Of a stretch of DNA of 64,000 nucleotides, positions 3,093 through 52,893 are shown in pieces (the first letter of the stretch is position 1; each line of letters starts with the position of its first letter). Origin of the DNA: a virus (lineage: Duplodnaviria; Caudoviricetes); IMG/VR virus record IMGVR_UViG_3300013947_000036, positions 5,787 to 69,786 of that record, one strand, 5' to 3'. Under the pieces are notes generated by a model. That model saw nothing but the letters and a program-made list of their open reading frames with translations. It was not told the origin of the DNA and made no database searches. The position numbers were made by a program, and so were the translations under genes.

Positions 3093-3195
3093 AAAAAAAT
3101 TTAATGAGAAAGATGCTAAATCTTCAGCTTAGTGAACTCTATGTCATGCTGAAGACATAACATCTATCTTACGAATTTTTATGTATAAAGTTCAC
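3093..3195. mobile_element. Nested pair of ~50-bp hairpin mini-elements (copy A 3093-3195 interrupted by copy B 3132-3182, opposite orientation)
   Basis: Removing 3132-3182 restores ATGCTAAA-TCTTCAG-CTTAGTAT-AAAGTTCAC, collinear with the other copies. Confidence 0.75.
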
Positions 3196-3211
3196 AATTT
3201 AAATACAATCT

Positions 3212-4174
3212 TTAATGATTGCTAGCTTCAATATATATTTTTTCTTTTTTTATAAGTGGTAAATTACAACAACCAAATTTAATTGGACATATTATTTTTT
3301 TAAATTTAATACTATTATAATATATATTTCCAATTGGTTTAATATTAGTAGAATATGCTGTTTGTGGACAATTATAAATTTCACCAATAGAATTTATATA
3401 AATTGCATCTATACCAGTATAACAAATATAATGATAAAATGTATTTATATTATTATTATTAATAATATCATCTTCAAAAACTTCATATATCTATTTTAAT
3501 TTATAATTATATATTATATATTTCTAATCATGTTTATTTTTAACATAATTATATAAATAATCATAATATTGTTTTTCTTCTAATGTATATAATTCATTAT
3601 ATGAATTTGAATTATCTATAAGAGAAATATCTAAATTATGCATAGATATATTATTTTTTTGATAAAAATCTAAAAATAATTTAAATAAATTTATATTTTG
3701 ATTTATATATTTATGTTCAAATAATACTATATTAAATATATTTTTAAAATTATGTAACTTTATATATTTATTAAAAAAATTATAAACTGTATTATTTGTA
3801 TTATTAAAATGATATGATATTGTTAATTCAAAATTTTTAAAATTTAACAAATCATTATAATAATTAATTGATTCTGAAAAATTTGTATATATATTAATAA
3901 TATAATTTGGATTTTCTTTTATAAATTTTTTTAAATCTGGATGTAATGTTGGTTCCCCACCTAATAATTGTATAATTATTTTTTTATTTTGTAAATGTTT
4001 AGTATTTTTAATAAAAGTTGTTAATTTATTTAAATTAAGATAATTATTTTTATTTTTTCTATAATTTTTAGTTGAACAATATGCACAGTTATAATTACAT
4101 TTATCAATAATATCTATATATAATAGAAATTTTTCAGTAGAATAAAACCATTTATTTTTTACAATTGAATACAT
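3212..4174 (-). CDS. Radical SAM protein with C-terminal Cys (SPASM/twitch-like) domain
   Basis: CNYNCAYC, LLGGEPTLHP; TAG at 3524 read through to TAA 3212. Confidence 0.8.
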
Positions 4175-4183
4175 TTTTTTAAT

Positions 4184-4355
4184 ATATAAAATATTATACA
4201 AATCAATATGAAAGTTATATAAAAATTCTTAGGATAGATGTCTATTTGAAAATAAGTTAAAGATGTTATCAAAACTTCATGGATATGAAGTCGTTGAAAT
4301 CAATCTAAGTTATACATCAATTATTAGAAATATTTTATATGGAAATGAAAATACT
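4184..4355. repeat. 172-bp inverted repeat, arm 2 (duplicated tnpB fragment)
   Basis: See 647-818. Confidence 0.9.
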
Positions 4356-4356
4356 A

Positions 4357-5295
4357 TTAACACATATAAAACTAATCACGATTATTAATAGTTAAAAAAT
4401 CTAACATTTGTTTATCACATTCAATACAAGATTGAAATTTGCCATTTAATATATCAGTATAATCTAAAATATTATCTTTATCAAATTCAGACTAATTTAC
4501 AAATAAATAATAACATATACAAGGGGTAACCTAACATAAATTATTTATACGTATAAATTTATTTTTATAACAATAACATTGTATATTTTTTATATTTGTT
4601 TCTTTTATTTTTTTTAAAAGTTTTCTATATTTATAACTAAATAATAAATCTGAACATATTTTATTATTTGCAAGAGTTTTATTTATATTAAATCTTTCAT
4701 AAATAGGATCAGTATCAATTATTTTATAATTAGAAAACTATTTTAAAATATTAAATATTTTATTATTATCTTCATTTTTATTATATTCAAATTTAATATA
4801 CTACATAACATCATTATGATTATTATTTTTAAATGCTAATGCATTTTCTAAAATATTATTTAATTTTGATCCAACTCTATATTTTTCATGTATTGCTTGC
4901 GTTGTACCACATATAGTAAATATTATTTTTGAGTTTGAATTAAAATGAGTACTTAATTTTTTCCACCAATTTATATTATGAAGTGTACCATTTGTAAATA
5001 AATTAATCTAAATATTTTTATAATAAAAATAATCTATAAATTTTATAAGCTCTGGATGTAATGTTGGTTCTGATAAATTTCCACCTATATTAATTTCTTC
5101 AATATTTGGATATTCACTTAATTTAATTAATAATTTATTAATATCAATAAATTTTTTTGGTAATTTTTTTATAAAAAATTTAAAATTTTTAAGCTATGAA
5201 ATACATAAAGGACACTTTAAATTACATATATTAGATAATTCAATATCTACAATTTTAATATCAGTTTTATTTAATATAAATTTTTTATTTATCAT
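4357..5295 (-). CDS. Radical SAM protein
   Basis: CNLKCPLC, GGNLSEPTLHP, LFTNG, C-terminal CxxC; open under TAG=Gln. Confidence 0.8.
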
Positions 5296-6034
5296 AATTT
5301 TTATTTTTATAAAGTTTATCTAAAAAACATTTTGGAGTACGAATTATTCCATTTTTATTTTTCCAATTTCCATCAAAATAATGTTCAATATAATTTGGCT
5401 AATTATATTGCTAAATATATTTAAGTTTAAGTTTATAAAAATTTTTTTTATTTATTAAATACTAAATATTTGACCACCATTTATCATTAGTCTAAAGAAG
5501 TTTAATACTATTTTGTATATTTGAATTAGATATTGAACCAAAAAAATAATTATCATCTGCAACATTATTTGAAGCATTATTATTATAATGTCGATTTACT
5601 ATAAAACTACCAAGCTAAAGCAACTAATTATCAAATGGTTTAAGAGGAAATGTATCACAATCAACATATATTCCTCCAAATTCTTGTATTATTCTAAGTC
5701 TATATATATCACTTAAAAGTTGTATAAATCGTATTTCTTTTCCATAAAAAACTTCTTGATGTTGAAGTATATACATATATGTCTTATTCAAAATATTTTT
5801 ATATTTTTCATTCTTGTTAAGAATATCAAAAATTACTTCATTTAACATTTTGTCATATATTGAATTTATTTTTCCATTATATATATCTTCAATATTTTTT
5901 ATTGAAAAATGAATTAATTTAACAATAAAATCAGGATTTGCTTCTTTATATGCATTAATACTAAACTATACATAATTTGGAATATTATCTCCAAACCAAA
6001 TCATAAAAAGTTGTTTTGGAATCATTATTGACAT
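5285..6034 (-). CDS. Glycosyltransferase family 32 (DXD sugar-binding)
   Basis: IPKQLFMIWFG N-terminus, SDIYRL..GGIYVDCD motif; TAG readthrough. Confidence 0.8.
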
Positions 6035-7016
6035 TTAAATATTTAAGTTTATCAGTTTAAATACATTTTCTTTTGGTAATCCAAATTCACATGGACATCC
6101 ATTTGACATACATAATGTTTTTGAAAACTTAAGCATATATAAATTATATATATTTCCAATATTTTTATATAACATATCTGCACATGGAAATATATTTCCA
6201 TTAAAATGAACATAAAAATATGTTAAACCAGCATTACATATCCATTTTTTAAAATTAAATGTAATATCATTTTTTACTTGAATTTCTGACATATTACATA
6301 TACTATTATCATTATAATATACACTTATATGTTTATCACAATCAAAATTATTATACTATAATAAACGTTTATTATATTCATTAAGTTCAATGTTAGTATA
6401 TTTTTCATGTCTTATTTTATTAAATTTAGTTTTATCATAATCATCTATTAAATTACATTCAACATTATTATTAAATATCTTAAATAATCTATCATAAACA
6501 TTTAAACATTCAAAATAATATTTTGTATGTAACATTATATGTATAGAAGCTATAGCAATAGTTTTACTTTTTAATTCTAATATTTTCTTAATAAATAAAT
6601 TAGTTCTATATTGATTTAAATAATGAAATGATATTAAAAAATTTACATTATATTTAGCACATTCTATATAAAAACTAATAGGCTAAGAAAAATTTGTAAA
6701 TGAATATAATGATATATTATCTAATTTATATATTTTTTTTTATAAATGATAAATAATTTTTATGTAATGTTGGCTCACCACCTATAAGAATAATTTTAAA
6801 TTTATAATTAAAATATTTTTTTTTCAAAAATTTTATATATAATAATACTTTATCTAAATTTATTTCTATATTAGTTCTAATATAATTATCCTTCATATTA
6901 TAACAATATTCACATTTATAATTACATTTATCTATACAATGAATACATATTTTTATTACATTTGTATATTCACTTGAATCTATTTTAATTGGATAATGAG
7001 TCTTTTTAAATTCCAT
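6035..7016 (-). pseudogene. Radical SAM/SPASM protein with one frameshift in an A9 run
   Basis: CNYKCEYC, IGGEPTLH; removing one base at 6733-6741 joins it to the CNAG...FPCADM...CPC domain (6035-6292). Confidence 0.7.
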
Positions 7017-7656
7017 TGTAATTATTTTCACAATTTTTAATAATATCTTCAATTTGAATACGTTTTGAATATTGTCCAGCAAAAATAAAATTAAATTTAC
7101 TGTTATTTAAAATCTTATATGCTAATGGAAATAAATCATATGCATATGGAAAAACATATATATTAGTTTTCAATTTAAATTTATTCAAATCAACAATTGC
7201 ATGCTATATATCAATATTAAATGCATGCATTTGTTGAAATTTTGTCAAATTCATATTTTTCAAATCAAGATGCTATGCACCATGACAAGCTAAATAAATA
7301 TTGTCAAATTCAAGAAGTTCTCTAATTTCATCTATTGACATATATGCATTAAATGCATTTTTATCACCATTATGTATTCTATCATGAAACTTTGCACAAT
7401 CAGCTTCATAAATTGGTTTTGCATTGTTTTGTCTAAAAATTCTTGATGAAAATCCTAATACACAATATATATTTTTAGCTTTTAATTCTTTTATTTTTTC
7501 TTTTATAAAATAAAACTATGAATATAAACAATCATCAAAAAATATTAAATCATTGTCATTTAAAAATGACATAATATCTTTAAAAACAAAAGTATGATGA
7601 ATTACAATCATTCTCTTTATGTTTTGAAGAATATAACTAAAACAATATTTCATCAT
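7006..7656 (-). CDS. Polysaccharide deacetylase-like (CE4/NodB) protein
   Basis: FFDDC, ACHGAQH and VFPYA motifs after TAG readthrough. Confidence 0.65.
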
Positions 7657-8492
7657 AGATTCTTGCAAATCCAATCATATAATAATCCTTTATATATTAT
7701 ACTATGTCTAATAAATTTAGATGATGTCAATTCATGAATATAATTTATCCATTTGCTAGCTTCAAGAATTTCGCATTTTTTTCCATTATTTTCAGGAATA
7801 AAAGAAATATCATAATCAATACATGACAAAAAATCATCAATACCATCTTCAAAATTACGTTTAATATCTTTAGGTGATATTATTCTATGTTTAGACTAAA
7901 TTGCTTCAAGCAAATTCTATGGAAAAGTATCTTCAATATTTGAACATCTATAATAAAAATAATGAGAACAACTTTTCCAAAAATCTTTTGAATCATATGT
8001 ATGTCTCCAATTTGGATTAGTAGCTAAATAATTTTCAATACACTATTTGTCACCCATTGTAATTATTGGAACATGTATATTTTTTACAAAATCTATAAAT
8101 GCAATATTAGATTCTACTCTAATATCTCTTGCATAATATCCTATACTTGGAAATTCATTAACTTCAAAATTGCTTTGATATATAGTTGGAAACCAACATT
8201 GATATTTGTCAATATTTTTTCTGTAATATGAATATCCATCTACAAGTTTTTTACCAGGGAAAAAACTTGCATATTCTTTTCTGCACATTACAAAATCATT
8301 TAGTCTATCTAAACATGAATATTTATAAAAATATGGATTCTAAAGTCTCCAAATTCTATTGTCTTTTGGAATCTATTCTATATTTATATCATAAGACTTA
8401 AAAATATCTGGATATGTATTTTCCAGATATTTTACAGTTATTCCAGATCCTATTGAATTCTTTTTAAGCTAATATATTAAATTATATATCAC
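7653..8492 (-). CDS. Hypothetical protein
   Basis: GTG start overlapping the upstream stop; open to TGA 7653 under TAG=Gln. Confidence 0.6.
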
Positions 8493-9190
8493 TTCACCAT
8501 TTTATAATTTTCAAGATTTGAACGATATATATTAAGTTGTTTTTCAACTTCATCTACGGTTGTAGCATTTTCTATATTTTTTCTAGTTTCAGTCAAAAAA
8601 TCTGTAGTATGTTTTAATTGCATCAATTTATCATAACTATTAAGATACTTTTCAAGAGTATTTAAATTGAATTGTGTAGTATCATATTTTTGCTTCTTTT
8701 CAATATATTCTTGCTCTTGTTCAAATGTTGCATTTTCATCTAGTTTTTCAGGTTCTTCACATTCTTGTGAAGCTTCAATTACTTCAAAATATTTATCTTC
8801 TCTATTAGCATCTGTAATGAAATATCCTGCATTCAAAAGTGACACATAATTATTCAAATAATCCATCAAATCAATTACTGAAACTGTAAACAACGCTTGA
8901 TGCATTCGTGCTGAAACTTCATTTATAGCCATTTGTTTACATCTAGCTAAATCATCTAATGCTTCAATGACTAAATCTTTTGGTTGAACTTCTGGATATT
9001 CTAATGTTTTGCATATTGTTATTTTCTTTCCAGCAGCTAATGCTTTTTTACAATCTTCAATTGTCAACAATGTTGCTCTCAATGTACTGCAATCTGGTTC
9101 AACTAGCATTGCATTAGAATATGTAATACCTAATACTTGCCAAAAATTTCCTTGATCTTTAACTAAAAGAAGTTCAAAATTATGATCCAT
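8489..9190 (-). CDS. Hypothetical phage protein
   Basis: 233-aa ORF with no internal TAG. Confidence 0.75.
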   Translation of the reverse strand: MDHNFELLLVKDQGNFWQVLGITYSNAMLVEPDCSTLRATLLTIEDCKKALAAGKKITICKTLEYPEVQPKDLVIEALDDLARCKQMAINEVSARMHQALFTVSVIDLMDYLNNYVSLLNAGYFITDANREDKYFEVIEASQECEEPEKLDENATFEQEQEYIEKKQKYDTTQFNLNTLEKYLNSYDKLMQLKHTTDFLTETRKNIENATTVDEVEKQLNIYRSNLENYKMVK

Positions 9191-9602
9191 TTTTTATTTT
9201 TCCTATTTTTCCAATTTGAAATTTTACATAATCAATATTATCATCTGAAATATGATACTTTTGTTTTAAAATCTGCACTATTGATCTTAATACCTATGAT
9301 ACTTCAGTTTTATTATACATCTATGTAAACATATCAATATATATTATACTTTCAATAATATTGACATGTTTGATTTTATGTAATTTGTCTTTAATATATT
9401 CAGAATAAAGTTTTAAATTTTTATGATTTGCTGGAATTTCAGTTTCTAATGATTTTTTGTATACTTTATCATTGACTATTATCTGCAAATTTTTTGGAGT
9501 ATTGCAATTGTATATGTTAGTATTAACAGGAAAATCACATTTTTCCAAATGTATTTCTTTCAATGATGTACAATTGTTAAATGCTCCAAATTCTATAATC
9601 AT
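9180..9602 (-). CDS. Hypothetical protein with one BspA-type LRR unit
   Basis: IEFGAFNNCTSLKEIHL; TAG readthrough to TAA 9180. Confidence 0.5.
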
Positions 9603-9605
9603 AGA

Positions 9606-10592
9606 TCAATAGTAGTTGCAATTTCCATAACACCAACAAACTGAATATCCATTGCAATCAGAATAACATATGCAATCCTAAATTTCATTATTAGCTACAA
9701 CTTCAAAAACATTTGTTATTAGTTCTGTTTCTATCAAATTAGTTTCATTAGACAATTTATCTGAATGATAAATCCAATGATCATGTTTTCGATTGCCAGT
9801 TTTTTTATCATTACCTTCTGGTTGCATTTTGCCAAGAATATTATTCAATTCTTTAAGTTCTTTTATAATATTACCAGATTGTGCAGTATTTAAACGTTCA
9901 ATACCAGTATTATTATTATTCCAAGCATATTTTGGAGATTTATTTTTTTCTCTAATTCTTTTATTAAGTACATCTACTAACCAATTATAATCACCTATAC
10001 TTATATTATAGTATTTAAGTATAGTATCATGAGATATTTCTATAAATTCTGAATTTAATATATGACCTCTACACTCAGATTGTATTTCTGTTCTACTACC
10101 TTGGTAATATTTTGTATCTTTATATGCTACAGATTCTACTTCTTGTTTAGTATAAGAATATGCATGGTTTTTACAATAAATTATTTCATCATTTGATTTT
10201 GGAACAGGCATAGACCAGTGTTCTGGAAAATCATGTGAATCAATTATAGTTGAAAGTGGACGACGAACACTATTTGTTGACAAAATTGGTTTTCCTTTAT
10301 CATCATATCCAAAATCATCTTCATCATATGAAGTTTTAACAATAGGCACTTTAGATCTAAAAATACATTTATATTCAGTTATATTATTAAATGATGTATT
10401 ATCATCTTCTGGATATACTGTAAATATACAACCTTTTTCTCCATGACATGAAAATCCAACAGCACATAAATCTTCTTCTTTAATTTTTTTATCTGGATTA
10501 TCATGTAACTTATCAAGTAAACTATATCTATAATCATTATAATATTCTGGTAATTTTACCTATTCATTAATATTTGATAAATTAATTGACAT
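9606..10592 (-). CDS. 328-aa protein with C-terminal Cys-rich tail (CICYSDCNGYSVCWCYGNCNYY)
   Basis: ATG 10592; the tail lies beyond TAG 9678; ends TGA 9606. Confidence 0.75.
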
Positions 10593-10594
10593 AA

Positions 10595-11671
10595 TCAAAT
10601 TCCTTGTGTTAAATAAACATAATTCAATAATTTAGAAATATATCCAAACCATTGATAATATTTACATTTATTTTTATTGTTTGATCTACATGATGACCAA
10701 TTTTTGTATATATCTTCATCATCTTTCAACTAAGTGACATGACATGCAGAACAATGTGTAGCGCCACATTTAATGCATTTTTCATCTAGTTCCATATTGA
10801 ATTTTTCAGAAATAACTTCATATAATGAATTTATGTCATTTATATTGTTAGTTATAAACTTTTTTGAATTTGAAAGATATGGACATCCATGACAAATGTA
10901 AATATTTCCATCATTATGCATATGAATACTATTTGCTAATCCACAATTCATTTTTCTGCCATCACTAAACCATTGCCATAATGGTTTATGGTTCTTTTTA
11001 ATGTATTGCAATTCTTTTTTAGCAACTTCTACAACAACTTTTTTCCAAATTTCAAATATTTCAGGTTTTGGAGAAGTTGCAGTATCTAATGTTGGAAAAT
11101 ATGTAACTTTATTGTCAAATCTATTTGCTAATTCTTTATATGAATCCCAAATTTCTGGAAGTTTATCTATCAAATCATATGACAATGTAGCTTTGAATGA
11201 AAACTAAATATCATTATCATATAAATATTGAGCAGTTTCTATTACTTGTTTTCCAGTATTTCCACGCTTCAATGTATGATGTGGTTCACCATCATAAGAC
11301 AATTGAAAATGAAATTTATGTTTATTTTTCTAAAAATAATCTTTAGAAATTAAAGTTTTAAATCTATCAATCAATGTTCCATTTGTATAACAATGATATT
11401 TGACAAAATCATAATCACATGTATTTTCTATGATTTTATCCATAAAATCAGTATTTAAAAATGGCTCTCCACCCCAAAATGACAATATAAATGAACTATA
11501 TTTGTCTTTATCAAAATTTTTGCATGCATCAATTATAAGCTATAATTGTCTATTTTCAATATCTAGATTTCTTGGATTACATGTATGAGAACCTTCAAAA
11601 CAATATGCGCAATTGCAATTGCAATTATTAGTAAGTGTTACTTCAACAAATATATGTGGTTTATTGTCCAT
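10595..11671 (-). CDS. Radical SAM/SPASM-domain enzyme (peptide/protein maturase-like)
   Basis: CNCNCAYCFEG, FWGGEP, YTNG, SYDG; C-terminal CGL...YICHGC...CxxC...CxxC. Confidence 0.85.
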
Positions 11672-11951
11672 TTGATAAATTAGCTGCTGTATTTAAAATA
11701 CTTTTATCTGATGAAATTTCATTTAAAATATTGTTTGAAATATTGTTTGAAATATTATTTTTTGGCTAATTAGCAATTTCTAATGATAATTTTTCAGCTT
11801 CAGACAATGATTCCTATGAAATTTTATGTGTTTCTAAAATAGCTTTAGCTAATTTCAAAAGTGTCAAACTAACTGCTGGCTCATCATTATCTAATAAATC
11901 ACTTGCTTTTTTTAAAAATAAAACACCTACTAAAATATTCGAATCATTCAT
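11661..11951 (-). CDS. Small hypothetical protein
   Basis: ATG to TAA, two internal TAG, overlaps the start of the next gene. Confidence 0.55.
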
Positions 11952-11967
11952 AACTTAAATATTATAC

Positions 11968-12017
11968 ACAAAATTCGCAAGATAGATGCCATGACTTCAG
12001 CATAGCATAAAGTTCAC
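11968..12017 (+). mobile_element. 50-bp hairpin mini-element (copy 2)
   Basis: TTATAC|ACAAAATTCGCAAGATAG ATGCCATG-ACTTCAG-CATAGCAT AAAGTTCAC. Confidence 0.7.
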
Positions 12018-12031
12018 AATTTCAGAAAATT

Positions 12032-13117
12032 TTAAATATCAGTTTCATTTTCTAATACATTTACTTGAACTAATTGAGTATCAACAGGTGCTACCTATTT
12101 GCAAATATCAGATATTATATTAGCAATTTCAGTTTTTAAAGTATTTTTTATTTTATCTTTGTTTTCATTATTTATATTATTCAATGATTCAAAAATTTTT
12201 TCACATACAATATCTACATCATAATAATTTGTCTTATGTGTCTATGTGTATTCATATCTATTTAAACTTGCTAAAACTTCAATTTTCTGAAAATTCAAAT
12301 TGTTCATGCAATTATCTGATTCAGTTTTTGTATTGTTATTGTAATTTATGTTGTCATAGTATTTTAAATAAACCTAGTCATTACAATGATCTATTGCAAT
12401 ATATTTTCTAGCATTAATTAAATTTGTAACAAAATCATTATGAGACATACTATATAAACTATTCAATTCATTTTTAGTTTTATATATATTTGCTGTATAT
12501 TGTCCAGAATCATAGTCATTTTTAGCATGTCCAGGTATTTCAATTATTTGATTGTATTCAACTTTTGACAATTTGTTTGAATTTATTGTATCAATATTCA
12601 AATCATTTATAGATGTTGCAGTGTTTACATTACTATAATCATACAATATAGTGCTAAGGTGCACATTTGGAAGTGTACTTAGATAATTTGTTAAATGCCA
12701 ATAGTAAACATCAGATAAAATTGTGTTTTTTCCTAATGATTTCAAACCATTCAATTGATAGATTGTATCTCCAACTTGAATTTGATTTATGATGCTTGTC
12801 AATAATGAATTATCTCTATAATTGTATATATTTTGAAAATTTCGTGAATCTGGAAGATTAGAATCAACAGTTTTATTGTATAAAGCAGATTTTAAATATA
12901 AATTATTTAAACAATAAATTGATGAATAAAGTTCATCATTATTATTTGCAATTAAACAATTTTTATTGAAATATTTATCAGAATTATTAGTAGCTTGCTC
13001 AATATTTGCATAATACATTTCAAACTGAGTACTACCATTATTTTCTATTTCAAGCAAAAATGCTTTATTATTGCTTGTTGACGTAAAACTTTTGATTGAT
13101 TTTAATTGTTTTATCAT
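12032..13117 (-). CDS. Hypothetical (probably virion-associated) protein
   Basis: Open under TAG=Gln to TAA 12032. Confidence 0.65.
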
Positions 13118-13184
13118 TTCACTTCAAATTTTGTATATTTAAATATTTAAACAGTTTAAATATTTAAATGATTAAAGATTTTAA

Positions 13185-35501: not shown

Positions 35502-37214
35502 ATGTGCAAAATTTCTGAAAAATCTAAAAATATTTTAAAACATATTGTAGAAACTCATTGTGTTTCATATGCAAGAATTTTAAAATCGAAAAAATATTCA
35601 GATTTGTTTTCTGAAATTTCAGTTGCTTTTGAAAATTTTCCAAATTTAGATCTAAACACTAGAATTTTTTGGATATTGAATAACTTAAAAACATATCCAA
35701 AATGTGAAATTTGTGGAAAAGAACTAGTGAAGACAAAATGTCATCCACTTGAAGGATACACTACCAAATTTTGCTCTAGCAAATGTGCACACAAAAGTCT
35801 TGCATTCAAAGAAAAAATTAAAAATGCATTAAGTTGCTATGATAGACAAAAAGCAATGCAAAAACGTGAATTGACTTGTTTAAAAAAATATGGTTGTAGA
35901 AATGTTTCACAAAATTCAGAAATAAGAAAAAAAATTTCAAAAACATTTTCTGAAAAAACTGATGCTGATATTTTAAAAACTACATTGAAAAGAAAAGCTA
36001 CAAAATTTGCAAGATATGGAGATGAAAATTATTTTGACAAAAACAAAAAACAGTCTACAATTGAAAAGAAAACAATAGAAAATCCAAAATATTTAAAAAA
36101 CATTGTAGAAAAAAGAAAGAAAACTTGTCTTAAAATATATGGATGTGATTGTGCAGCACAACGTGACATTGCAAAGAAAAATCGTGAAATTGCAATTTTC
36201 AAAGAACTCTATGAAAAAATGATGTCAAATGAAAAAGTTCTTCCATTATTTCAATTTGATGAATATTTTAAAGTTAAAAACACTCAAAAACTGAAATGGA
36301 AATGCAAAATATGTGGAAATGAATTTGAGTGTGAAGCTAATGATGGACATGGATTTCTTCCAAGATGCTACAAATGTTTTCCAAAGCAACAACCTGTGTC
36401 AAATGAAGAAAAAACATTAGTTGAATTCATTGAAAAACTTGACATTGAAATTCAAACTTCATGTAGAAAAATAATTCCACCATATGAACTTGACATCTAT
36501 ATTCCTGAAAAGAAACTAGCTATTGAATTTGATGGTCTATTTTGGCATAGTGAAAAAGCTGATGCAGAAGTTAGTTATCATTTAGTTAAAAATGAGATGT
36601 GTGAAAAACTAGAAATACAATTGATACATGTTTTTGAAGATGAATGGCTTTTCAAGAGAAAACAAACAGAAAATTTTTTGAAAAAAATTCTTGGAGTGCA
36701 AAATTGCTTCAAACATATCACAAATGATTTGTGTGAAATAATTGAACTTGATGATTTTCAAACATAGCAATTCATTTTTGAAAATTCATTGATAGAAAAT
36801 TTCAAACATGATGTTTCATTAGGCTTGAAATTTAAAAATGAAATCATAAGTTTGATGACTTTCACAAAAATATATGAAAATTCATATATAGTCAATTGCT
36901 ATGATGACAAAATTGGATTTGATGTGAAAGAAAGCAAGAAAAAACTATTGGACTATTTCATTAAAAATCACAAAACAAAAAGACTTATAGCTTTTGTAGA
37001 CAGAAGATTGCGTAATGGAGAAGATTTGAAGAAACTTGGATTCAAATTTCTCTTTGCTGGAGTTCCAAATGCATATCTATGGAATTTCAAAAACAAAAAA
37101 CAAAAAGAAACATTAGAAAAATCAATTGAAATTTCAAATGAAGAAAAAAATATGCGTGAATACACACGCATATATGATTCTGGAAATCTAGTTTTTGAAA
37201 AAACTTATTTCTGA
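35502..37214 (+). CDS. Homing-endonuclease-like protein HE1 (Zn module + PD-(D/E)XK/Vsr-like nuclease + GNAT-like C-terminal domain)
   Basis: RIFWILN..YPKCxxC, KYG repeats, PYELDIYIPEKKLAIEFDGLFWHS, YDSGNLVF tail. Confidence 0.7.
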
Positions 37215-37849: not shown

Positions 37850-39622
37850 TTGTATTGTCTAGACGAAATTTTGAATATGCATAATGAATCAATAGAAGAT
37901 ATTTTGAGAAATAGACTTAGTGAAATGAAACCAACAGCATTTTTTTGTTGGCTGAAAAAACAAAAAGAAATTCTAAATGAAATATCTAAGTTCACAGAAA
38001 AATTAAATGACAGAAAATTCAGTTTAAGGACAAAATTGTATTGGTATTTGAATAATTTAGTTGATTTTCCAAGATGTACAGTATGTGGAAAATTGATTGA
38101 AAAAGACATTGTGAACATGAAAATTGGCTATCATAGAACATGTTGCAAAAAATGTTGCTATAAAGATGAATCTAGAAACAAGAAAATATCAGAAGTATAG
38201 TTAAATAAATCAATTGATGAAAAGCTCTAGATTGAATCTAGAAAACAACAGACATGTTTAAAAAGATATGGTTGCAAATATACATTTTAGTCTGACAACA
38301 ACAAAGAAAAAACAAAATTGACTAATTTGAAGAAATATGGTTGTGAAAATTGCATGCAGTCTGATGTCATCAAGAAAAAAATGAAAGAAAACAATTTGAA
38401 GAAATATGGTTGTGAAAACGTTTTCCAAGTCAAAGAAGTCAAAACAAAATCAAGACAGACATTGAAAAAACATTATGGAAGTGAAAGATGTCTATATTCA
38501 AATTCAATTATTGCTGAAAAACGAATCAAGCATATGACAGAGACTTTAAGGAGAAAATCTTATAGAAACTGCATTTTGCAAAATGCATTTGACAAACCAT
38601 GTTTCACAGAAGACTATTTTGCAGAAAACTACAGCAAAGATTCAGAATTTGAATTTGAATGCAAAAAATGTGGAAACAAATTTCATTCAAAACATATAGC
38701 TGGTTGCCATATGCTTTGTCCAAAATGCTATCCAAGAACATCATCATTTCCAGAAAGACAAATAAGTGACTATTTGAAAAGCATATGCAAAGAAAACATA
38801 ATTCTCAATTCAAAAAACATCATTCCACCTTATGAACTTGACATATACATTCCTGAAAAGAAACTAGCTGTTGAATTTGATGGCTTGTATTGGCATGCAT
38901 TTGAAAATTTCTTGAAGTCAAAAGGAGACAAAAACTACCATCTAGCTAAGACTGAGATGTGTGAAAAACTTGGAATACAATTGATACATGTTTTTGAAGA
39001 TGAATGGAAACACAAACAAAAAACAGTTAAAAATCTGCTTAAAAACATTTTGAATATGGATACTGAAAACAATCAACTGAATGGAAACTATGAAATAAAA
39101 CTAGCAACATCTGATGAAAGTGAAAAATTCATAGATGAAAACTGTCTTTACAGTAACATAAATTCAAAAATACATCTTGGATTATATAAAGAAAAAGAAC
39201 TTGTAGCATTGATGTTGTTTGGAAAATCTAGATTCAAAAGACAGCATGAATGGGAATTGCTTAGATTCTGCATAAAGCAAAACTATGTCATATATGATGC
39301 AGCTTTTGAAAAATTGCTTAATTTTTTTGAATAGAATTTCAAACCTAAATCATTAGTTTCATATGTTGACAGACGATGGAACACTGCAAAACTGCATCAG
39401 AAACTTGGATTCAACTTGTTGAAAAAAACTAAGCCAAACTATTTTTATGTAGACAATAAACATCAACAAAGATTCAAGAATTTTCAATTCAAAAAACAAA
39501 TATTGAAAAACAAACTTAAAAACTACAATGATTCATTGACAGAATACCAAAACATGAGAAACAATGGATATGAAACTATATATGATTGTGGAAATCTTGT
39601 AATGGTGAAAACATATGTCTGA
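37850..39622 (+). CDS. Homing-endonuclease-like protein HE2
   Basis: Same architecture as HE1, with SYVDRRW...LGF motif; five TAGs read through. Confidence 0.7.
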
Positions 39623-43207: not shown

Positions 43208-43288
43208 TTTTTTTTACCTTTATTTGATATATAGTTTTATTTTTTATTTTGGTTATTGACTACCAAGTCAATAAAATCGTTGAAATCT

Positions 43289-44308: not shown

Positions 44309-44343
44309 ATGATTTATTACCTTTTATTTCACGCGTATAATAT

Positions 44344-44453
44344 TATTTACTTTAGTTAAATTCATTTTTCTATTAGAAATTAATTTCTAAGACTATTTAC
44401 TCAAATTTAATTGAATTTCTATTAGAAATTATTTCTAAAATCTATTTACTTTT
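44344..44453 (-). promoter_or_regulatory. Three tandem promoter motifs with two interleaved palindromes
   Basis: GTAAATA cores in 44344-44353, 44394-44401 and 44443-44453; TTAGAAATTAATTTCTAA (44373-44390) and TTAGAAATTATTTCTAA (44422-44438). Confidence 0.6.
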
Positions 44454-44490
44454 ATGAAATTAAAAAAAAATCACATATGAAAATGTGACA

Positions 44491-45003
44491 TCAAATAAAG
44501 CATTTTTTGTCTTTGTCATATTTCCAATGGTATTTAGAAGTCTTTGGAAGACGTGTTTTGACTTCACACCATGCATTGACTGGAATGTTTCCTGAATCCC
44601 ATGTGTCGACAAAATAACTGTTTGTGTTTTTGCAATTCACATACACAATATGTCCACCATCTTTCCAATCATTAACATAGACTAAATAGACTTTTCCATC
44701 TCCTCTATGTTCATCTACCCATTTGTCTAATGGCATTTCTCCATCAAATTTAAGTGGATTGTCTTCATTTGGAAGAAGTTCTTCAATTGGTCCAAGCCAT
44801 TTTTTGAAAGTTTTCTCCAAATCATACAAATCAATGCCATCATCACCTGTGAAACCAATTCCTTTTTTGCAATCAACTTTCATTAGTTTGCATGCGATTT
44901 CATAGTCTAGACCTAATGCTCCAACAATTGCACGAATCACACAGTCACCAACATTTTTTCTCCATTTGTTGTAGTTTATGTTTCTAAAATTTTTGCTTTT
45001 CAT
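44491..45003 (-). CDS. Hypothetical phage protein, possible papain-like Cys-His-Asp fold
   Basis: VGDCVIRAI, GGHIVYV, VDTWD motifs. Confidence 0.55.
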   Translation of the reverse strand: MKSKNFRNINYNKWRKNVGDCVIRAIVGALGLDYEIACKLMKVDCKKGIGFTGDDGIDLYDLEKTFKKWLGPIEELLPNEDNPLKFDGEMPLDKWVDEHRGDGKVYLVYVNDWKDGGHIVYVNCKNTNSYFVDTWDSGNIPVNAWCEVKTRLPKTSKYHWKYDKDKKCFI

Positions 45004-45030
45004 TGCAATTATTTACTTTTTTTTGCAAAA

Positions 45031-46563
45031 TCAAACATGAACATATTTCAAATATCCACAATCAGCAATTTGAAATGTTTTGTTTGTTGAAATATGTTTT
45101 TTGTTTTTCAATTTTGGTCTTGTAGCTTTTAAAAGCTTGAAATCTGGAATTTTGAAGCATTTGTTGAAAATGCTTCTGTCTACTATGATGTTTTTTGTGT
45201 TGTCATCAATGTTGTAGAATTTTGAAATGAAATTTTCATCTGTCAAAATTCCTTTGATCAGATTTTCAATTTCATGCTTGTTTTTTCTCCATTGATCTTC
45301 CCAAACATAGACTAGCTTGATGTTGTTTTTTTCACAAAGCTTTGTCTTGAACAAATGTGCATTGATGTCATTTAGTTTTTCATGTGAATGCCAATATATG
45401 CCATTGAATTCAAATGCAATTTTCAGTTTTGGAACATAGCAATCAAGTTCATATGGCCAAATAACTTTTCTAGTTCCTCTTAAGACATTTTCCTTGCCAA
45501 CAATGCTTTCAACAAATTCATCTAATTCAATTTCTGCATGTGATTGCCTATGGCTTAACTATGGAAAACATTTCAAACATTTGAAAGCTGTCTATTTCTA
45601 GCCTTCTCTCATGAAAAAATTCATGTCAAATTTGCTAGAAAATTCATTTTGGCATTTTTTGCACTTGCATTTGTACAAATGTTCATCATTATGTCTATTT
45701 GCAGCAAATTCTTCAATTGAAAACAATGGAACAATCATTGTCGAATTTTTGAAATATTTGTTGTAGAATTTTCTTGCATTTCTCAAACAAGTCAAATTTT
45801 TTAGTTCTTTGTTGTCGTATTGGCATTTAAGTGAACAATATTGTGGCCAAACACTGCTCATTTTCACATTTTTGAAATCTAATTGTCTTCCACATGTTTT
45901 GCATCTAGGAATTTCTTGCATCTGATGCGCAATCCAATACACTCTAGTTTCTAAATTCAATTTTGTGAAATCAAGTGGATATGATTTTTCAAGCAAATAT
46001 TTATGCAATTGTTTGTTTTTGCATATCCAATTTCTGAAATTTCTTTTGTGATTGCTTAGCAAATTCACTATTTTTTCATTTGAAATTTCATCATATTCAA
46101 TAAGTTCATTTTTCATTTTCACATTGCATTCATCTGGCAATTTGTTCACATAAAACTAAGCTGTTTTTCCAGATTTGCTTATTTTGTTTCTTGAACCTAT
46201 CAATTTTTTAATGTTTGGATCTGAATTTGAACATTTTTCATCACACCAAAATTCGCTTTGTTTCAAACTTGGTTTGAATGTTTTTCTTAAAATCTTTCCA
46301 CAATATGCGCATTTCACTAATTTATGTCTATTGTTCAACACATACCAACATCTAGATGAAATAGGTGTCACATAATCGACAAAACTAGTTTCAAACATCA
46401 CAAAATCAAACAACTTTTTGAATTTAGTTGTTTTCAACATATTGAAATATGAAAAAGGAAACTCATTCACTAATCGCTAGAGAATGAGCTTCATGTCGAC
46501 ATTTTCATCAATCAAATTTTTCTATATCTATTCAATCAATTCATGTTTTCTTTTTCTATCCAC
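45031..46563 (-). CDS. Homing-endonuclease-like protein HE5
   Basis: TRVYWI...PRCKTCG, WPYELDCYVPKLKIAFEFNGIYWHS, DCGYL tail. Confidence 0.7.
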
Positions 46564-46585
46564 ATATATATTGTACAGAGTATTT

Positions 46586-47308
46586 TTAAATCAAACTTGC
46601 AAAAAAATCACTGACAGCTTTTCCTAAAAATTCAGCTTTTTTAGATGAAATGTTTGTATTTGGCATTTTGCTTATTGTTTTTTCAAATTTATTGAATTTC
46701 TGCTCAACTATTTCACCATGCATATTGCAAACAAACTATTTGCTTTCCAAAATACCATTCACAAATCTATTTCCATCTGCTGTCACCATTTCACCAATAG
46801 ACGGATTTAGGACAGTATCAATGGTTATCAGCTGCAAATCTTTCACTAAACCTGTTTTTTCATCTACTGTTCCCATTGCCCTAGAAGACACACCCCATTT
46901 AGTTCCATACTAAGTAAGTGAAGCTAAAGTATCTCCACATACAGTTCCATGAATTCCAAATTTCTCATCAGAACACAATATGACAGCTTCTCCAATCCAT
47001 TGTTTATTGTCTTCTTCTAAAGAAAGAATTCTTGCAGATGCTCTAGTTGGATCTATCTCGCATGAGCTTGGATGTTCTAGCTCCATAAGTCCACGATTAG
47101 TTTCAATCATTTCTGTTCTGAATTTGTCGACTTCTCGTCTAAGTTCTTCATATGGATATATTCTTCCATTTCCATTTTTCTTTTCAGATTGCAAAAAAAT
47201 GCCACGAAATTTCATTGTTTTTGGTTTAGATGGATCATAAGCTTCATTTATGATCTAAACTGGTTCTTTTTCTTCAGTTATAAGTTTAAAAATTTTGTTA
47301 GTTTTCAT
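46586..47308 (-). CDS. gp21: Prohead protease, gp21-like
   Basis: GIFLQSEKKNGNGRIYP, ELEHP, GVSSRAMG, D.V.NPS. Confidence 0.9.
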
Positions 47309-47317
47309 ATTAACTAT

Positions 47318-48637
47318 TTACTTTTTTCTAAAAATTAAATTACCGCAATCATATAAACTATAGAAATTTTTCTTTTCATGTTTTCCTTGACATGATTTTG
47401 AATGGAAAACTTCAATTGGTTGAGTTGTTGATATAAAATCATAATGTTCAATTTTCCAAAATGTTGGATATTTATCATGTGGAAGTTCAATTATGTCATT
47501 ATTTTTAGAAATATTAGTTTTTCCATTGATTAAATCAACAATCAATTTTTTCTGTTCTTGTTTTCGATATATCCAATCATCTTCATAAATATGAATCAAA
47601 TGTATTCCATGTTTTTCACATATATTTGTTTTATTAAGCAAATGTAATTTTTTGTTTAAATTATGTTGTTTTGCAAATTGCATACTATGCCAATATACAC
47701 CATTAAATTCAACAGCTATTTTCTTTTCAGGAATCCAAATATCTAACTCATATGGATATATAACATGTCGATTTATTTTGTTGTTTTTATTAAAAATTTT
47801 AAGTTTTGGAAATGTTTTTTTCAAAAAATTTGTTATTTCAGATTCATATTGTGAATGATTGCCAATTGTATGTGTATGTTCTATTTTGCAAAATGGACAA
47901 ACTGTTATTTTTTTATATGATTTTATTGGAGCATTGAAAACGTGTTCACATTTCATACATTGCCACCAAAATGATTTTTTGTTGCATTGAAAATTTTCAA
48001 CTGTTTTTAAATCAAATAATGGTTTGAAATTCTAATTATTTTTGATAATTTCAATAATTTTCAATTGTTTTTTCAAATGTATTTTGTCTATTGTACTTTG
48101 AAGCTTCATTACTGAATCTGTTTTGTATTTTTCAAATATAGATTTTTTGAAATTAGCTTTTACAATATCAGACTACATGCAATTTTCACAACCATATTTT
48201 TTCAAATTTGTTTCAATGACTTGTTTTTTGAATTCATTTGTTCCAAAATTTGTATATGAACCATATTTCTTAAGACAAGTTTCTTTTGTTTTTTTAGTTC
48301 TATCTGAATATATTGAATTGTTGCATTTTTTGCAATATGTTGGATATCCAATTGTCAATTTTACATTGTATGTAAATAGTTTTCCACATAGTTTGCATTT
48401 TGGAAAATCATGAAATCCATTAATAATCCAAAATATTTTTGTTTTCAAACAAAATTTTGGATCTTTAAGTTTTGGAACTTGTTCACATATCCAATTGTAA
48501 AGATTTTTATATTGTTTTCCACTGATAATAGAATTATAATGCTAAGGAAAAGTTTTTAAAATAAAATCCAATTGTTCTCTATATGAGAACAATGAATTCA
48601 ACTTTTCATGAAAATCTTTTAATTCTTTTTTTGTCAT
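47318..48637 (-). CDS. Homing-endonuclease-like protein HE6
   Basis: KIFWIING..FPKCKLCG, YPYELDIWIPEKKIAVEFNGVYWHS, YDCGNLIF. Confidence 0.7.
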
Positions 48638-48675
48638 ATATAAACTAAAAACATTTAATTATATTTACATATTTT

Positions 48676-49713
48676 TCAGTATGAAAACAGATTTGCGATA
48701 CGAGTTTCCAATGGCAATTCTGGTTTGAAAAATTCATAGTCTGCTTTTTTGCCAGATGTATACATTTTCTCCCAGCAATAAGCGATATAGTTTTCTGGAA
48801 ATGTTTTTATGTTGAGATAGTGCAGAATGAGATTGTGCATGCAGCATTTTCTGCATTTTCCACAATTATTTCCAAATAGTTGAACATTGAATTTGTTTTG
48901 TGTATGATTTCTGAATGTTTTGTTGAATCTTCCTGATGTGACGCATGAATAGTAATCATCTTGCAGATTGTATTTCAAAATAGTTTTCAGTCTTAAGCCT
49001 TTGTCTTGGCCATCTGGAATTTTGATGAATTCAAGATTTGAAATATAATTTTCAAGACAAGACAGATAAGTTTGTGTGATTTCTCTAGCATCAGTCAGAT
49101 TGACCCCAGGAACAGCTTTGTCAATAGTTAAATCGAAATCATCTCCTAAGCTTAAGTATTTCCAGTTTCTTTCTAGACATATGTCTGACATAACAGACAA
49201 TATAAGCTAATTTTTCATTGGATTTTCTGGCCAAAATTGCTTGTATGGATTGAAATGTGTGTCTTTTTCTAGATTTTTAGTAACTTTCATTGCTAGCAAA
49301 TCTAAACCTAGTTTTTCAGCTAAGATTTGAGCATATTTCCATGCTAAGCCATTTTCATATGTGTTTATGTTTCTAGCAAAAAACAAATGGACATTATAGC
49401 CAGCATTCTTGAGATATATAGCTTGGAAAACAGAATCTAGACCTGCACTGAAACCAAGTATGACATCTTTTGATTTTGTGTCTTGAATGGTATGTTTTCC
49501 AAGATTTATGTTTGATGTTTTTTCATATTTTTGTTTGAATCGATTGTATATCAAATCAACCATTGGAATGAAGCCAGACAATACTTCTAAATTTCTGTCA
49601 AACCATTTTTTGTTGAATACATCATATAGATTCAACATATCCTAAGACAAAAATGGTTTGTTTAGACAATCAATTTGGATTTTTGTAGCTAAAAATTTAG
49701 ATGTTATTTGCAT
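48676..49713 (-). CDS. QueC-like PP-loop ATPase
   Basis: FSAGLDS PP-loop, NPMKNQLILS, YYSC and CGKCRKC motifs in QueC order. Confidence 0.65.
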
Positions 49714-50804
49714 TAGATTTTGTCACTTTCATTGATGACTACGATATATTCGTCATTTTTTCCCCAATGGCATGTGTTTGTGAAAGTTTCTTTTACGAAG
49801 TTCTTGTATTTGACAATGCTTCCATCTACTACAAAAACATATCTTTTGCATTTGTAGTTTTTCAGACATGTCTCTATCCAATCATCACATGATATGTTAG
49901 ATTCTGGTACTCCATCCCATATTTCAGTGTTTCCATATGGAGGACATGTCAACAAACATTCATATGTTCCAGTGTTTTTAGTTGCATCTGCATTTGCAAG
50001 ATCATATTGTGGAATTATGCCATTTTTCTCAAAAATTGGTTTTGCGAAATCCATCAATTCTTTTGATTCTTCAATGACTCTTTTGCTAAGATCTCTTCCA
50101 ATATATTTCTTTCCAAGTGCTATTGTTCCTAGAAGTCTTCCACTGAAACCTGAAAATGGATCAAACACTTCATTGAAATCTTTCAGATATTTGTCGACTA
50201 GATATCTTGCAGCATGTGGTTTGAAAAGACCTACATTCATATATTTTCCTGATGTAGTCAAACCAATTGCATAGATGAATGGTGGAACTTTTCCTTCTAG
50301 AAGATATTTCCAATGTATGTCAAATGGTTCATTCTTTTTATGTTCATTGAACCAGTCAGAACAACGTAGTCTATTCAAATAGAATTTTCTGAAAATTTCT
50401 TTGTCATTTTGCAAAATTTTCCATCCAGTATTTGGTGAAGCATGTTTTTTCTTAGCTGCATCTAGAAAGCTTTTATGGAAATATTTTATGATTGGTGATT
50501 TTGTCTTCCAATTTCTTTGATGATTCACTAATGTAGATATTTCATTTTCATACACAGATCTAGATGGTTCTTTTTCATTGACACTTGGCAATGGATGAGA
50601 TTTGACCCATTCATATTCTCTATCTAGATATTTGTCAGCAATAGCTTCTGCAAATTTTTTTGTGCAATTGCCTTTGTATTTGTAATTTGGATTTCCAGCT
50701 TCTCTTTGTATTTTAAGAAAAACTTTGTTTTCTTTCAATCCATCATATGTCAATGGAAAATTTTCATTTTCTGGCAAAATGTCTTTTCTAGATATATCAT
50801 TCAT
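49713..50804 (-). CDS. SAM-dependent amino (N6-A/N4-C type) DNA methyltransferase-like protein
   Basis: VFDPFSGFSG (motif I), YIGRD, LLTCPPY (motif IV-like). Confidence 0.7.
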   Translation of the reverse strand: MNDISRKDILPENENFPLTYDGLKENKVFLKIQREAGNPNYKYKGNCTKKFAEAIADKYLDREYEWVKSHPLPSVNEKEPSRSVYENEISTLVNHQRNWKTKSPIIKYFHKSFLDAAKKKHASPNTGWKILQNDKEIFRKFYLNRLRCSDWFNEHKKNEPFDIHWKYLLEGKVPPFIYAIGLTTSGKYMNVGLFKPHAARYLVDKYLKDFNEVFDPFSGFSGRLLGTIALGKKYIGRDLSKRVIEESKELMDFAKPIFEKNGIIPQYDLANADATKNTGTYECLLTCPPYGNTEIWDGVPESNISCDDWIETCLKNYKCKRYVFVVDGSIVKYKNFVKETFTNTCHWGKNDEYIVVINESDKI

Positions 50805-50817
50805 GAATATATCATAC

Positions 50818-50867
50818 TTGAAAATCATAAGATAAATGCCATGTTGAAGACATGGCATAGAGTTCAC
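50818..50867 (+). mobile_element. 50-bp hairpin mini-element (copy 3; loop inverted)
   Basis: TCATAC|TTGAAAATCATAAGATAA ATGCCATG-TTGAAGA-CATGGCAT AGAGTTCAC. Confidence 0.7.
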
Positions 50868-50870
50868 TTT

Positions 50871-51686
50871 TCAATCAACATAATCATCATATTTGATTCC
50901 AACAGCTTCTGCTATCTATTGTTGATATTGCATTATTTTCTGAAAATTATTTCTTAAATTATTTTTAGTCATTGACTATTCTGAACATTTCTAAATGCAA
51001 ATTGGAACTCTAGAATAAAAACGTTTTAAATTATTCAATACCTAATATTTAAAATTGTCAATTTTTTCATCTTTCTAAAATGGTATTTCTCTATATATGA
51101 TATCAGCTAATTCCATTTGATATTCATAAAGTCCTCTTAATGCAATATATCCATTTTTTGACAATGCATAACATAAACCTGAACTTACTGTAGTTGTTTT
51201 TGAAAATGGAATGAACAATTGATTGTTTTTTCTTGCAGTTTTCATTTCAATTAAATAATTAGAAATTTCAGTTTTTATATCTGGACAAGGAGTCTAAAAA
51301 TGTGAAAATAGACATAAATCATAATCCTTTATTGTTTTTTCAGCTTCTTCTAAAATTTCTGAGATTTTGTCAAGATTCTTCAAAAAAGAAAAATCATCTT
51401 CCATAATCAAAATCTTATTGTAATTATTCAATTCAGCAATTTTCATTATAGAATAATGGCCAAATGCACATGAAAATGCTGAACTAGAAGTTAAACGTTT
51501 TTCACAATTTATATTTTGTTTTAAAATATCAAAAAATGGTGATGAAATATTTTCATGAATATGTAAAATTCCACTGTCACTTAAACCAACTCTTTTAAGT
51601 TCAGAATGCATTTTGTCTTCTATATGTTTATATCCAGCATAATGCAATATATACACAGCATCAAAATATTTTTTCCAATCTATCAT
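50871..51686 (-). CDS. Glycosyltransferase family 25-like
   Basis: FDAVYIL, CAFGHY, ILIMEDDF motifs. Confidence 0.7.
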
Positions 51687-51695
51687 GAGTTTCCT

Positions 51696-52409
51696 TTATC
51701 TTTTATATGGAGATTCAATTTTATTTAACTCTATCATTTTTATGTTTTTTACAACAATCGATTTGTCATAAAATTTCATGAATATCCAAAAACCTGACAT
51801 TCTTTCTAAAATAAAACCTAATGCACGTTTTTGATATTTGTCTCTTAAATCTAGATTCAATTCTGGCAATATTTTCAAAGCAATATCAATACATATGTTT
51901 ATAAATTTGCTATATTCAAAAAACATTTTTTTGCTAAATACAAACATATTGCATTTTGCATAAACATGCTAATTAAGATATGTATTCAATAAAATTTGAT
52001 ATTCTTTTAAATATTTAGAAAATAAACTTAAAAATAAATCAAAATCATGTTTAATATGATATAAACAATAAGATTGATATATTGTAAAATATTTGTTTTT
52101 GCTAAATGTACATAAAATATTGTTGTCATTTAAATCATCAATTTTAAAATCTAAATATCTACGATATTGCGCAATTCCAATAAAATCTGGATTTCCAAGC
52201 AATTCATAATTTTTACTTAACCAATATATCATTGACATTTCATTCAAATATTGATTGTATTTTGATATATTGTCAATTCCAATGTCATCAGTGAATATCA
52301 TTTTAGATGAATTATATCCTCCACATCCAATAGGAACATATATGTCTTTTTTGAATTCATCTATAATTTCTGTTTCAAAACTATAGCAAATTGGAATTTT
52401 TAATGTCAT
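51696..52409 (-). CDS. DUF4422-like (glycosyltransferase-associated) protein
   Basis: DDIGIDNISKYN..LNEM..IYWL.KN....DFIGIAQYRRY, NMF, ER motifs. Confidence 0.7.
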
Positions 52410-52423
52410 TAAATATATTTTAC

Positions 52424-52475
52424 AAAAAAAATTGACAAGAAAGATGCCATGTCTTCAGCATGGCATAGAGTTCAC
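52424..52475 (+). mobile_element. 52-bp hairpin mini-element (copy 4)
   Basis: TTTTAC|AAAAAAAATTGACAAGAAAG ATGCCATG-TCTTCAG-CATGGCAT AGAGTTCAC. Confidence 0.7.
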
Positions 52476-52567
52476 AAAAAAAATGATAAAAAGATATTTT
52501 TATGTTTTAGATTATTTTTTTTTTGAAAAGTAAATAATAAATAACTTTATAAAGGAAAAAAATAAAA

Positions 52568-52768
52568 ATGACAGTAAATCAAGTAAGAAATTATATGATA
52601 AATAATATGCATAGAAATTCAGTTTTATATGCTGCAGCAGCTACATTAGCATTATTATCTGATGAAGTATCATCTAATGTATCATCAGAAGTATCATCTA
52701 ATGTATCATCAGAAGTATCATCTAATGTATCATCAGAAGTATCATCTAATGTATCATCTAATACATAA
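52568..52768 (+). CDS. 66-aa protein with SSEVSSNV tandem repeats
   Basis: Promoter motif at 52526, AAAGGA upstream, four 24-bp repeats at ~52664-52762. Confidence 0.5.
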   Translation: MTVNQVRNYMINNMHRNSVLYAAAATLALLSDEVSSNVSSEVSSNVSSEVSSNVSSEVSSNVSSNT

Positions 52769-52843
52769 TTTTAAAATTAGATTGTATTTAAATTATAAAA
52801 ATAAATAAATTTCATAAATAGAATAATTTTATTTTTAAGTTGA

Positions 52844-52893
52844 GTGCACTCTATGCCATGCTGAAGACATGGCATCTTTCTTGTCAAATTTTT
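52844..52893 (-). mobile_element. 50-bp hairpin mini-element (copy 5)
   Basis: GTGCACTCT ATGCCATG-CTGAAGA-CATGGCAT CTTTCTTGTCAAATTTTT; near-identical to copy 4, inverted. Confidence 0.7.

Follow-up and report, generated by a model that had tools for sequence, protein, structure and literature searches.

Short hairpin repeats that sit directly against the promoter-like boxes of a phage raise the question of whether they belong to the phage's own regulatory equipment or were brought there by a transposon. Six such units of about 50 nucleotides (nt) lie between positions 3093 and 52893 of the DNA analysed here, a 64,000-nt window (bases 5787-69786) of the 69,786-bp virus contig IMGVR_UViG_3300013947_000036. 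The contig has a GC content of 24.6% and is estimated to represent about 25% of its genome, and a T4-type tail sheath is encoded in the window. An initial annotation, made from the letters of the window, had offered two readings, namely a minimal mobile element of the IS200/IS605 type whose target is effectively the -10 box, or a native class of hairpin promoters or operators. The former is supported by empty sites in relatives, by a broken Y1 transposase gene inside a longer form of the element, and by end geometry and a guide/target rule that match those of IS608. We conclude that the units are very probably non-autonomous, one-hairpin derivatives of an IS608-like (IS200/IS605) insertion sequence that resides in large phages forming one clade and having T4-type sheaths. 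The family itself is known, but its one-hairpin form and its promoter-box landing site have not previously been described.

All six units are present where the initial annotation had placed them, and reading every copy bore out the anatomy that it had proposed. In the orientation of that annotation, a unit begins with an A-rich arm of 18-20 nt that ends in AAAG or ATAG (once in ATAA), continues with an 8-bp stem enclosing a 7-nt loop, and closes with the tail A(G/A)AGT(T/G)CAC, typically AGAGTTCAC. The 23-nt hairpin core, at up to three mismatches, is matched five times, as against 0.01 times expected by chance. Beyond the limits of the window, the same contig has two further copies, one at contig positions 4102-4145 and the other, which is degenerate, at 2008-2046. 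The left flanks and the absence of a duplication were likewise as claimed, with TTATAC three times and TCATAC, TTTTAC and TTTTTC once each. Read on the opposite strand, four of these flanks give the -10-like sequences G-TATAAT, G-TATAAT, G-TATGAT and G-TAAAAT, 6-9 nt before the ATG codons at 3077, 11951, 50804 and 52409, respectively.

The evidence for insertion comes from relatives of the window's phage. Its contig is syntenic with a phage contig here called G001, at protein identities of 25-58%, and G001, together with G002 and G006, can be aligned collinearly with G003, a contig of 184 kb, their nucleotide identity being about 76%. When G001, G002 and G006 are compared with G003, at least 12 orthologous gene starts carry a 51-nt unit on one side and the direct junction ...AACC/GTAAATA... 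on the other, with no duplication. About five of these pairs are clean on both flanks and the rest on the gene side only, and the boundaries at all sites are TTAC on the one hand and the resuming flank on the other. A longer copy follows the same pattern, as G003 reads ...ATATTTAC/GGTT... where G001 reads ...ATATTTAC/216-nt copy/GGTT..., also with no duplication. From such pairs, it follows that the unit is either an insertion or the object of precise excision, that its boundary lies exactly upstream of the box, and that the box exists independently of the unit. Empty sites, which the initial annotation had regarded as a test of mobility, thus do occur, but only in relatives of the window's phage.

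The longer copies carry the genes of an insertion sequence. In G003, a 1,907-bp element (75057-76963) lies between two of these hairpins in the same orientation. It contains pieces of a Y1 transposase gene (Y1_Tnp, PF01797; 71 and 30 bits) with the HUH and Tyr regions present, interrupted by one in-frame TGA and one frameshift, and it encodes, on the strand opposite to tnpA, a TnpB of 432 amino acids (aa) that ends 9 nt before the right hairpin. Copies with tnpB only are found in G004 and G005. In the copies of G003, G004 and G005 the TnpB protein has OrfB_IS605 and TNB domains, tnpB reads toward the right end, and its stop codon stands 9-12 nt before the right hairpin. The 216-nt, two-hairpin copy of G001 (44566-44781) keeps only the last ~100 nt of tnpB; like the long copies of the other three contigs, it has the hairpin at both ends in one orientation. 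The Y1_Tnp model detected no tnpA in G001, G002 or G004-G007, all of which are fragments. A Y1 transposase gene, for which the initial annotation had proposed to search, is therefore found within a full-length copy bounded by the same hairpins, in the relative G003 only and in broken form.

The ends of the family follow the rule established for IS608. In that element, the left cut lies 3' of TTAC, 19 nt before the hairpin, with the guide AAAG, and the right cut lies after TCAA, 10 nt after the hairpin, with the guide GAAT; each cut site pairs with the four bases that lie 5' of the respective hairpin, guide base 2 with target base 1 (PMC3201880, PMC5934647). The hairpin family described here has a left arm of 18-20 nt and a right tail of 9 nt. 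Among 52 tabulated copies, the guide AAAG accompanies the target TTAC in 26 (subfamily I) and the guide ATAG accompanies the target ATAC in 7 (subfamily II), with no crossed combination, and the right ends of the tnpB-bearing copies combine the guide GAAG with the cut site TCAC. One crossed case, AAAG beside ATAC, is seen in the decayed outer member of a nested pair in the window, which is outside the 52 scored copies. The change of guide base 2 from A to T is thus matched by a change of target base 1 from T to A, and these two bases are the same pair as in the IS608 crystal structure. Subfamily II accounts for four of the copies in the window's contig and is the dominant one in the window. 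In both the 19-nt/9-nt geometry and the guide/target rule, the family matches IS608.

On this basis, the full element, which has the same hairpin in its left and right ends, would move by single-strand transposition of the 'peel and paste' kind, carried out by a Y1 HUH TnpA. The left end would be cut 3' of the flanking T(A/T)TAC, 19 nt before the hairpin, and the right end after TCAC, 9 nt past the hairpin, with the four bases just 5' of each hairpin serving, by base pairing, as a DNA guide to the cut site. Of such an element, the 50-52-nt units of the window retain a left arm complete with guide, a single hairpin and the right tip; the simplest route to such a form may be the collapse of a two-ended element by recombination across its identical hairpins. 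The target tetranucleotide lies inside the complement of the promoter-like boxes, with TTTAC in GTAAA(T)A for subfamily I and TATAC in G-TATAAT for subfamily II. Because of this overlap, insertion takes place directly upstream of the box, and neither the box nor the start codon that follows it after 5-9 nt is disrupted. Such sites probably tolerate the insertion, since a late promoter of the T4 type requires no sequence upstream of its box, and this may be how units survive there.

Boxes of this kind are widespread in these phages. The sequence AAAAGTAAATA is located 5-8 nt before many start codons in the window's contig, those of structural genes included, and GTAAATA(T) has the same role in G001 and G003. 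The GTAAATA-type boxes resemble the T4 late promoter TATAAATA, a promoter for which no upstream element is required. In G001, a unit is present at about half of all GTAAATA boxes. The targets of subfamily I read TATTTAC in 23 of 29 cases, whereas the same context surrounds just 15 of the 84 intergenic TTAC sites of G001; therefore, either more than four bases make up the target or tolerance is restricted to sites of the TATTTAC type.

Exact matches to the hairpin are also present in further IMG/VR phage contigs and in 45 stretches of metagenome DNA, whereas the hairpin with its tail gave no match in 185,579 prokaryote genomes. A profile search yielded 52 copies in nine contigs, and 103 distinct copies once metagenome loci were added, in DNA of 20-56% GC. 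Across the 103 distinct copies, each of the four Watson-Crick pairs is represented at stem pair 7 (TA 31, CG 22, GC 19, AT 7), and this covariation supports base pairing in the predicted hairpin. G.T mismatches in the stem, counted together with A.C mismatches to ask which strand folds, numbered 36 against 33. The left-arm variants are genome-specific and common to the mini and long copies of the same genome, which indicates that the family has recently spread inside each genome. No close relative was found in the phage record collection, and a protein-based search for loci close to the copy at 50818-50867 found none. In G001, two units stand back to back near the contig end (82566-82760; L023), one of which belongs to subfamily II and has its left arm in a long inverted repeat with the sequence that follows.

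Within the window, one copy sits inserted within another (3093-3195). The outer copy, on the plus strand, follows the target TTATAC at 3087-3092, whose complement G-TATAAT stands 8 nt before the ATG at 3077. Its left part (3093-3131) runs from a 20-nt left arm, which ends in the guide AAAG, through the 5' stem arm and the loop to the fourth nucleotide of the 3' arm, at which point it is split by the inner copy; its right part (3183-3195) supplies the last 4 nt of the 3' stem arm and the tail AAAGTTCAC. The inner copy (3132-3182, minus strand) has 51 nt, belongs to subfamily II (guide ATAG) and lies 3' of a minus-strand TTATAC, the complement of 3183-3188, that is built from the stem and tail of the outer copy. 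It faces the 3' end of a convergent gene, with no start codon there. When all deletions of 44-57 nt were tried, the best rebuild of the outer copy was obtained by removal of 51 nt beginning at 3132-3134, and the rebuilt copy scored 35 bits against a background 99th percentile of -23. The nested copies are enclosed, with ~3.4 kb in total, by an inverted repeat of ~95 nt (725-820 on the plus strand, 4175-4270 on the minus strand). Both arms of this repeat contain the remains of a subfamily-II left arm with no hairpin (760-788 and 4214-4242; two matches against 0 expected), and in each case a G-TATAAT box comes after them.

Two other plus-strand copies of 50 nt have ATAC as their target. The one at 11968-12017, of subfamily II (guide ATAG), follows TTATAC at 11962-11967 (plus strand; complement G-TATAAT, 9 nt before the ATG at 11951) and occupies the gap between the minus-strand genes 12032-13117 and 11661-11951; its hairpin (11986-12008) is weakened and its tail is AAAGTTCAC. 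The other, at 50818-50867 (guide ATAA), follows TCATAC at 50812-50817 (plus strand; complement G-TATGAT, 6 nt before the ATG at 50804), begins 3 nt past the stop of the minus-strand gene 50871-51686 and has an inverted loop in its hairpin (50836-50858). The 7-nt loop is inverted relative to its flanks, with the stem intact, both here and in a copy of G001 (74108-74130), which is consistent with inversion between the two stem arms.

The remaining two copies belong to subfamily I and have perfect hairpins. The 52-nt copy at 52424-52475 (plus strand; guide AAAG, target TTAC; hairpin 52444-52466; tail AGAGTTCAC) follows TTTTAC at 52418-52423 (plus strand), the complement of which, G-TAAAAT, lies 7 nt before the ATG at 52409. 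The 50-nt copy at 52844-52893 is inverted (minus strand; hairpin 52853-52875; tail AGAGTGCAC) and is flanked by TTTTTC, the complement of 52894-52899. The two stand tail to tail around 368 bp (52476-52843) that contain a GTAAATA box, an AAGGA ribosome-binding site and an open reading frame of 66 aa with SSEVSSNV repeats, whose number is different in L102, a strain 98.6% identical to the window's. Folded as single-stranded DNA, the hairpins of the copies at 50818, 52424 and 52844 are stable, at -8 to -10 kcal/mol.

Several observations weigh against a transposon origin of the units or against parts of it. No empty-site allele was found for the window's own copies, as L102, the only near-identical strain, has both of the copies that it covers, 50818-50867 and 52424-52475, the latter with a longer A-run; it is without the copy at 52844-52893 and the tnpB gene to the right of it, and has different DNA there. 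Among all fetched contigs, no filled/empty difference was seen at the strain level (at least 95% identity). The window's contig, about a quarter of the genome, contains no tnpA, and the sole tnpA found, that of G003, is broken. The hairpins of the copies at 3132-3182 (-3.3 kcal/mol) and 11968-12017 (-2.4 kcal/mol) are decayed and no better than shuffles. The covariation of guide and target amounts to two subfamilies and so may reflect roughly one evolutionary event. The promoter role of the GTAAATA and TATAAT boxes is putative, being read from their position and conservation only. Finally, the left guide AAAG of the one-hairpin unit mismatches the right cut site TCAC at one guide position, and a TnpA dimer normally binds two hairpins; for these two reasons, the mobility of the mini form as such is doubtful.

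The units could have this transposon origin and the one-hairpin copies could since have been taken over by the phage, so that the left arm, with its T-run and TTGAC-like box, would now serve as the upstream half of a promoter or as the terminator of the preceding gene. The occupation of about half of the GTAAATA boxes in G001 would suit such a role, as would the copies that fill the whole gap between co-directional genes and the persistence of copies in the 98.6%-identical strain. However, the empty boxes appear to serve the orthologous genes equally well, and decayed hairpins and inverted loops are tolerated, which makes a takeover improbable in our view.

The second reading of the initial annotation, a native regulatory cassette in which the hairpin is an operator, an activator site or a hairpin-promoter element read by a phage transcription factor, is not supported and must be considered highly improbable. 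It draws on the fact that most copies share one polarity, with a -10-like box and a start codon directly downstream of them, on the conservation of the sequence across phages of 20-56% GC, and on a palindromic site that could bind a dimer. Yet orthologous genes retain the box without the hairpin, the repeated unit stops exactly before the box, and the same hairpin closes tnpB genes. Moreover, there are copies with no gene following them, such as the one at 3132-3182 in the window and one at 58797 in G001 that faces a terminator, and variants of stem pair 7 coexist in one genome, which suits a hairpin better than half-sites for one protein.

Terminator-promoter cassettes of T4-like phages, the promoter-early stem-loops (PeSLs) reportedly described by Arbiol in 2010 and Comeau in 2014, suggest another origin, in which the units would spread and shuffle genes by homologous recombination only, with no transposase involved. 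The phage does have a T4-type tail sheath, its stem-loops lie just upstream of promoter-like boxes in short intergenic gaps, and homology between relatives often breaks at the units; the features of PeSLs are described in PMC4122927. Such an origin is nevertheless scarcely credible here, given that the units lack a -35 box at 17-nt spacing and, for the most part, a Shine-Dalgarno sequence, that the insertions are exact and lack flanking homology, and that long copies contain tnpA and tnpB while the units obey the IS608 guide rule. A promoter cassette or PeSL had been our first reading, and it was dropped on finding the empty sites and the tnpA and tnpB genes. An N4-type hairpin promoter was set aside on account of its different stem and loop sizes and because a T4-type phage is not known to have a virion RNA polymerase.

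If the units are indeed derived from an IS608-like insertion sequence, they illustrate how a transposon family can persist in a phage genome that is 96% coding, namely by landing on the phage's own promoter core; the promoter would be unharmed because nothing is needed upstream of its box. The two subfamilies would provide a natural example of IS608-type retargeting by a change of guide, which has so far been shown mainly by engineering, and the one-hairpin unit would be an undescribed form for IS200/IS605, similar to the repetitive extragenic palindromic (REP) sequences of bacteria. Annotators should not mistake these repeats for promoters, operators or terminators, and the presence or absence of a unit may be a useful marker of recent exchange among these uncultured phages. 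A bolder proposal, which we consider rather unlikely as a whole, is that the one-hairpin 50-52-nt unit is itself a substrate of TnpA, and thus the smallest DNA transposon known; that the one-base guide change from AAAG to ATAG turned one subfamily away from the late-promoter core (GTAAA) and toward boxes of the TATAAT type; and that the family can cut, and copy itself into, the element-free promoter sites of co-infecting related phages, since the TnpB recognition site would be the same flanking motif. If true, promoter boxes would offer the family a refuge and at the same time serve as points of attack when phages compete with one another.

Genes in the window's contig read properly only with TAG read through. 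Under code 11, frames of at least 150 aa account for 46% of the contig and the longest has 526 aa; once TAG is read through, these values rise to 100% and 1,501 aa. TAG is therefore a sense codon in this contig. Genetic code 4 gave no better frames, and related contigs of 42-50% GC reach ~100% frame coverage already under the standard code. No tRNA genes or Rfam families were found in the window. Two more tnpB genes with OrfB_IS605 and TNB domains (52949-54166 and 55129-56520, both on the plus strand), separated by a serine resolvase gene (54427-55035, plus strand), form an IS607-type arrangement and represent elements other than the hairpin family; GTAAATA stands 5-7 nt ahead of the ATG in both tnpB genes. 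Paralogous genes with DUF7487 and MTES_1575-type endonuclease domains are found at 35502-37214, 37877-39622 and elsewhere, and in G001 the end of one such gene abuts the start of a hairpin unit exactly (58796/58797).

Four known systems bear comparison with these units. Like PeSLs, they are intergenic stem-loops located directly upstream of promoter boxes and tied to insertions, deletions and breaks of homology. PeSLs, however, contain a sigma70-type -35 box, a 17-nt spacer, a -10 box and a ribosome-binding site, and their stems vary (PMC2839356, PMC4122927). In the present family, the unit stops short of the box and does not contain it, no -35-like hexamer is found at a distance of 16-18 nt from the box, and the ATG follows the box by 5-9 nt, mostly with no ribosome-binding site; the stem is conserved in sequence, and the units are linked to a transposase family. 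With REPs, the units share the form of short, single extragenic hairpins that are present in many copies, have a tetranucleotide conserved 5' of the stem and are linked to a Y1 HUH enzyme. REPs differ in residing in bacterial chromosomes, in depending on a single-copy, domesticated RAYT (TnpA-REP) gene, and in having a GTAG-type 5' motif; the phage units, in contrast, have the same ends as a true tnpA/tnpB insertion sequence, and the target that flanks them is fixed. In a search that was not specific for RAYT genes, the in-element tnpA of G003 was the only match to the Y1_Tnp model.

Palindrome-associated transposable elements (PATEs) are gene-less derivatives of IS200/IS605 elements, known for example from Geobacillus stearothermophilus and Haloquadratum (PMC10055086, PMC3119063). 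The units resemble them in being gene-less and non-autonomous, in keeping transposon ends and in needing TnpA in trans. The 216-nt copy of G001 at 44566-44781, which is gene-less and has its own hairpin at both ends, is a PATE by definition. Unlike PATEs, the window's units have one hairpin only, fused between a left arm and a right tip within 50-52 nt, and they possess neither a second end nor a guide-RNA scaffold.

IS608 of Helicobacter pylori, a member of the IS605 group, differs from the phage family in several respects. Its right cut site and guide are TCAA and GAAT, whereas those of the phage family are TCAC and GAAG; in the phage family, tnpA and tnpB run in opposite directions, and the left and right hairpins have the same sequence. 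The preferred target of the phage family extends to (A)TATTTAC, the complement of the phage promoter box, and its host is a phage clade, with 0 copies in the prokaryote genomes searched. The two nevertheless have in common hairpins just inside both ends, insertion 3' of TTAC with no duplication, a left cut 19 nt before the hairpin foot with AAAG as the left guide, a right cut 9-10 nt after the foot with AG directly 3' of it, pairing of guide base 2 with target base 1, and long copies that carry tnpB, in G003 together with a broken Y1 tnpA (PMC3201880, PMC5934647).

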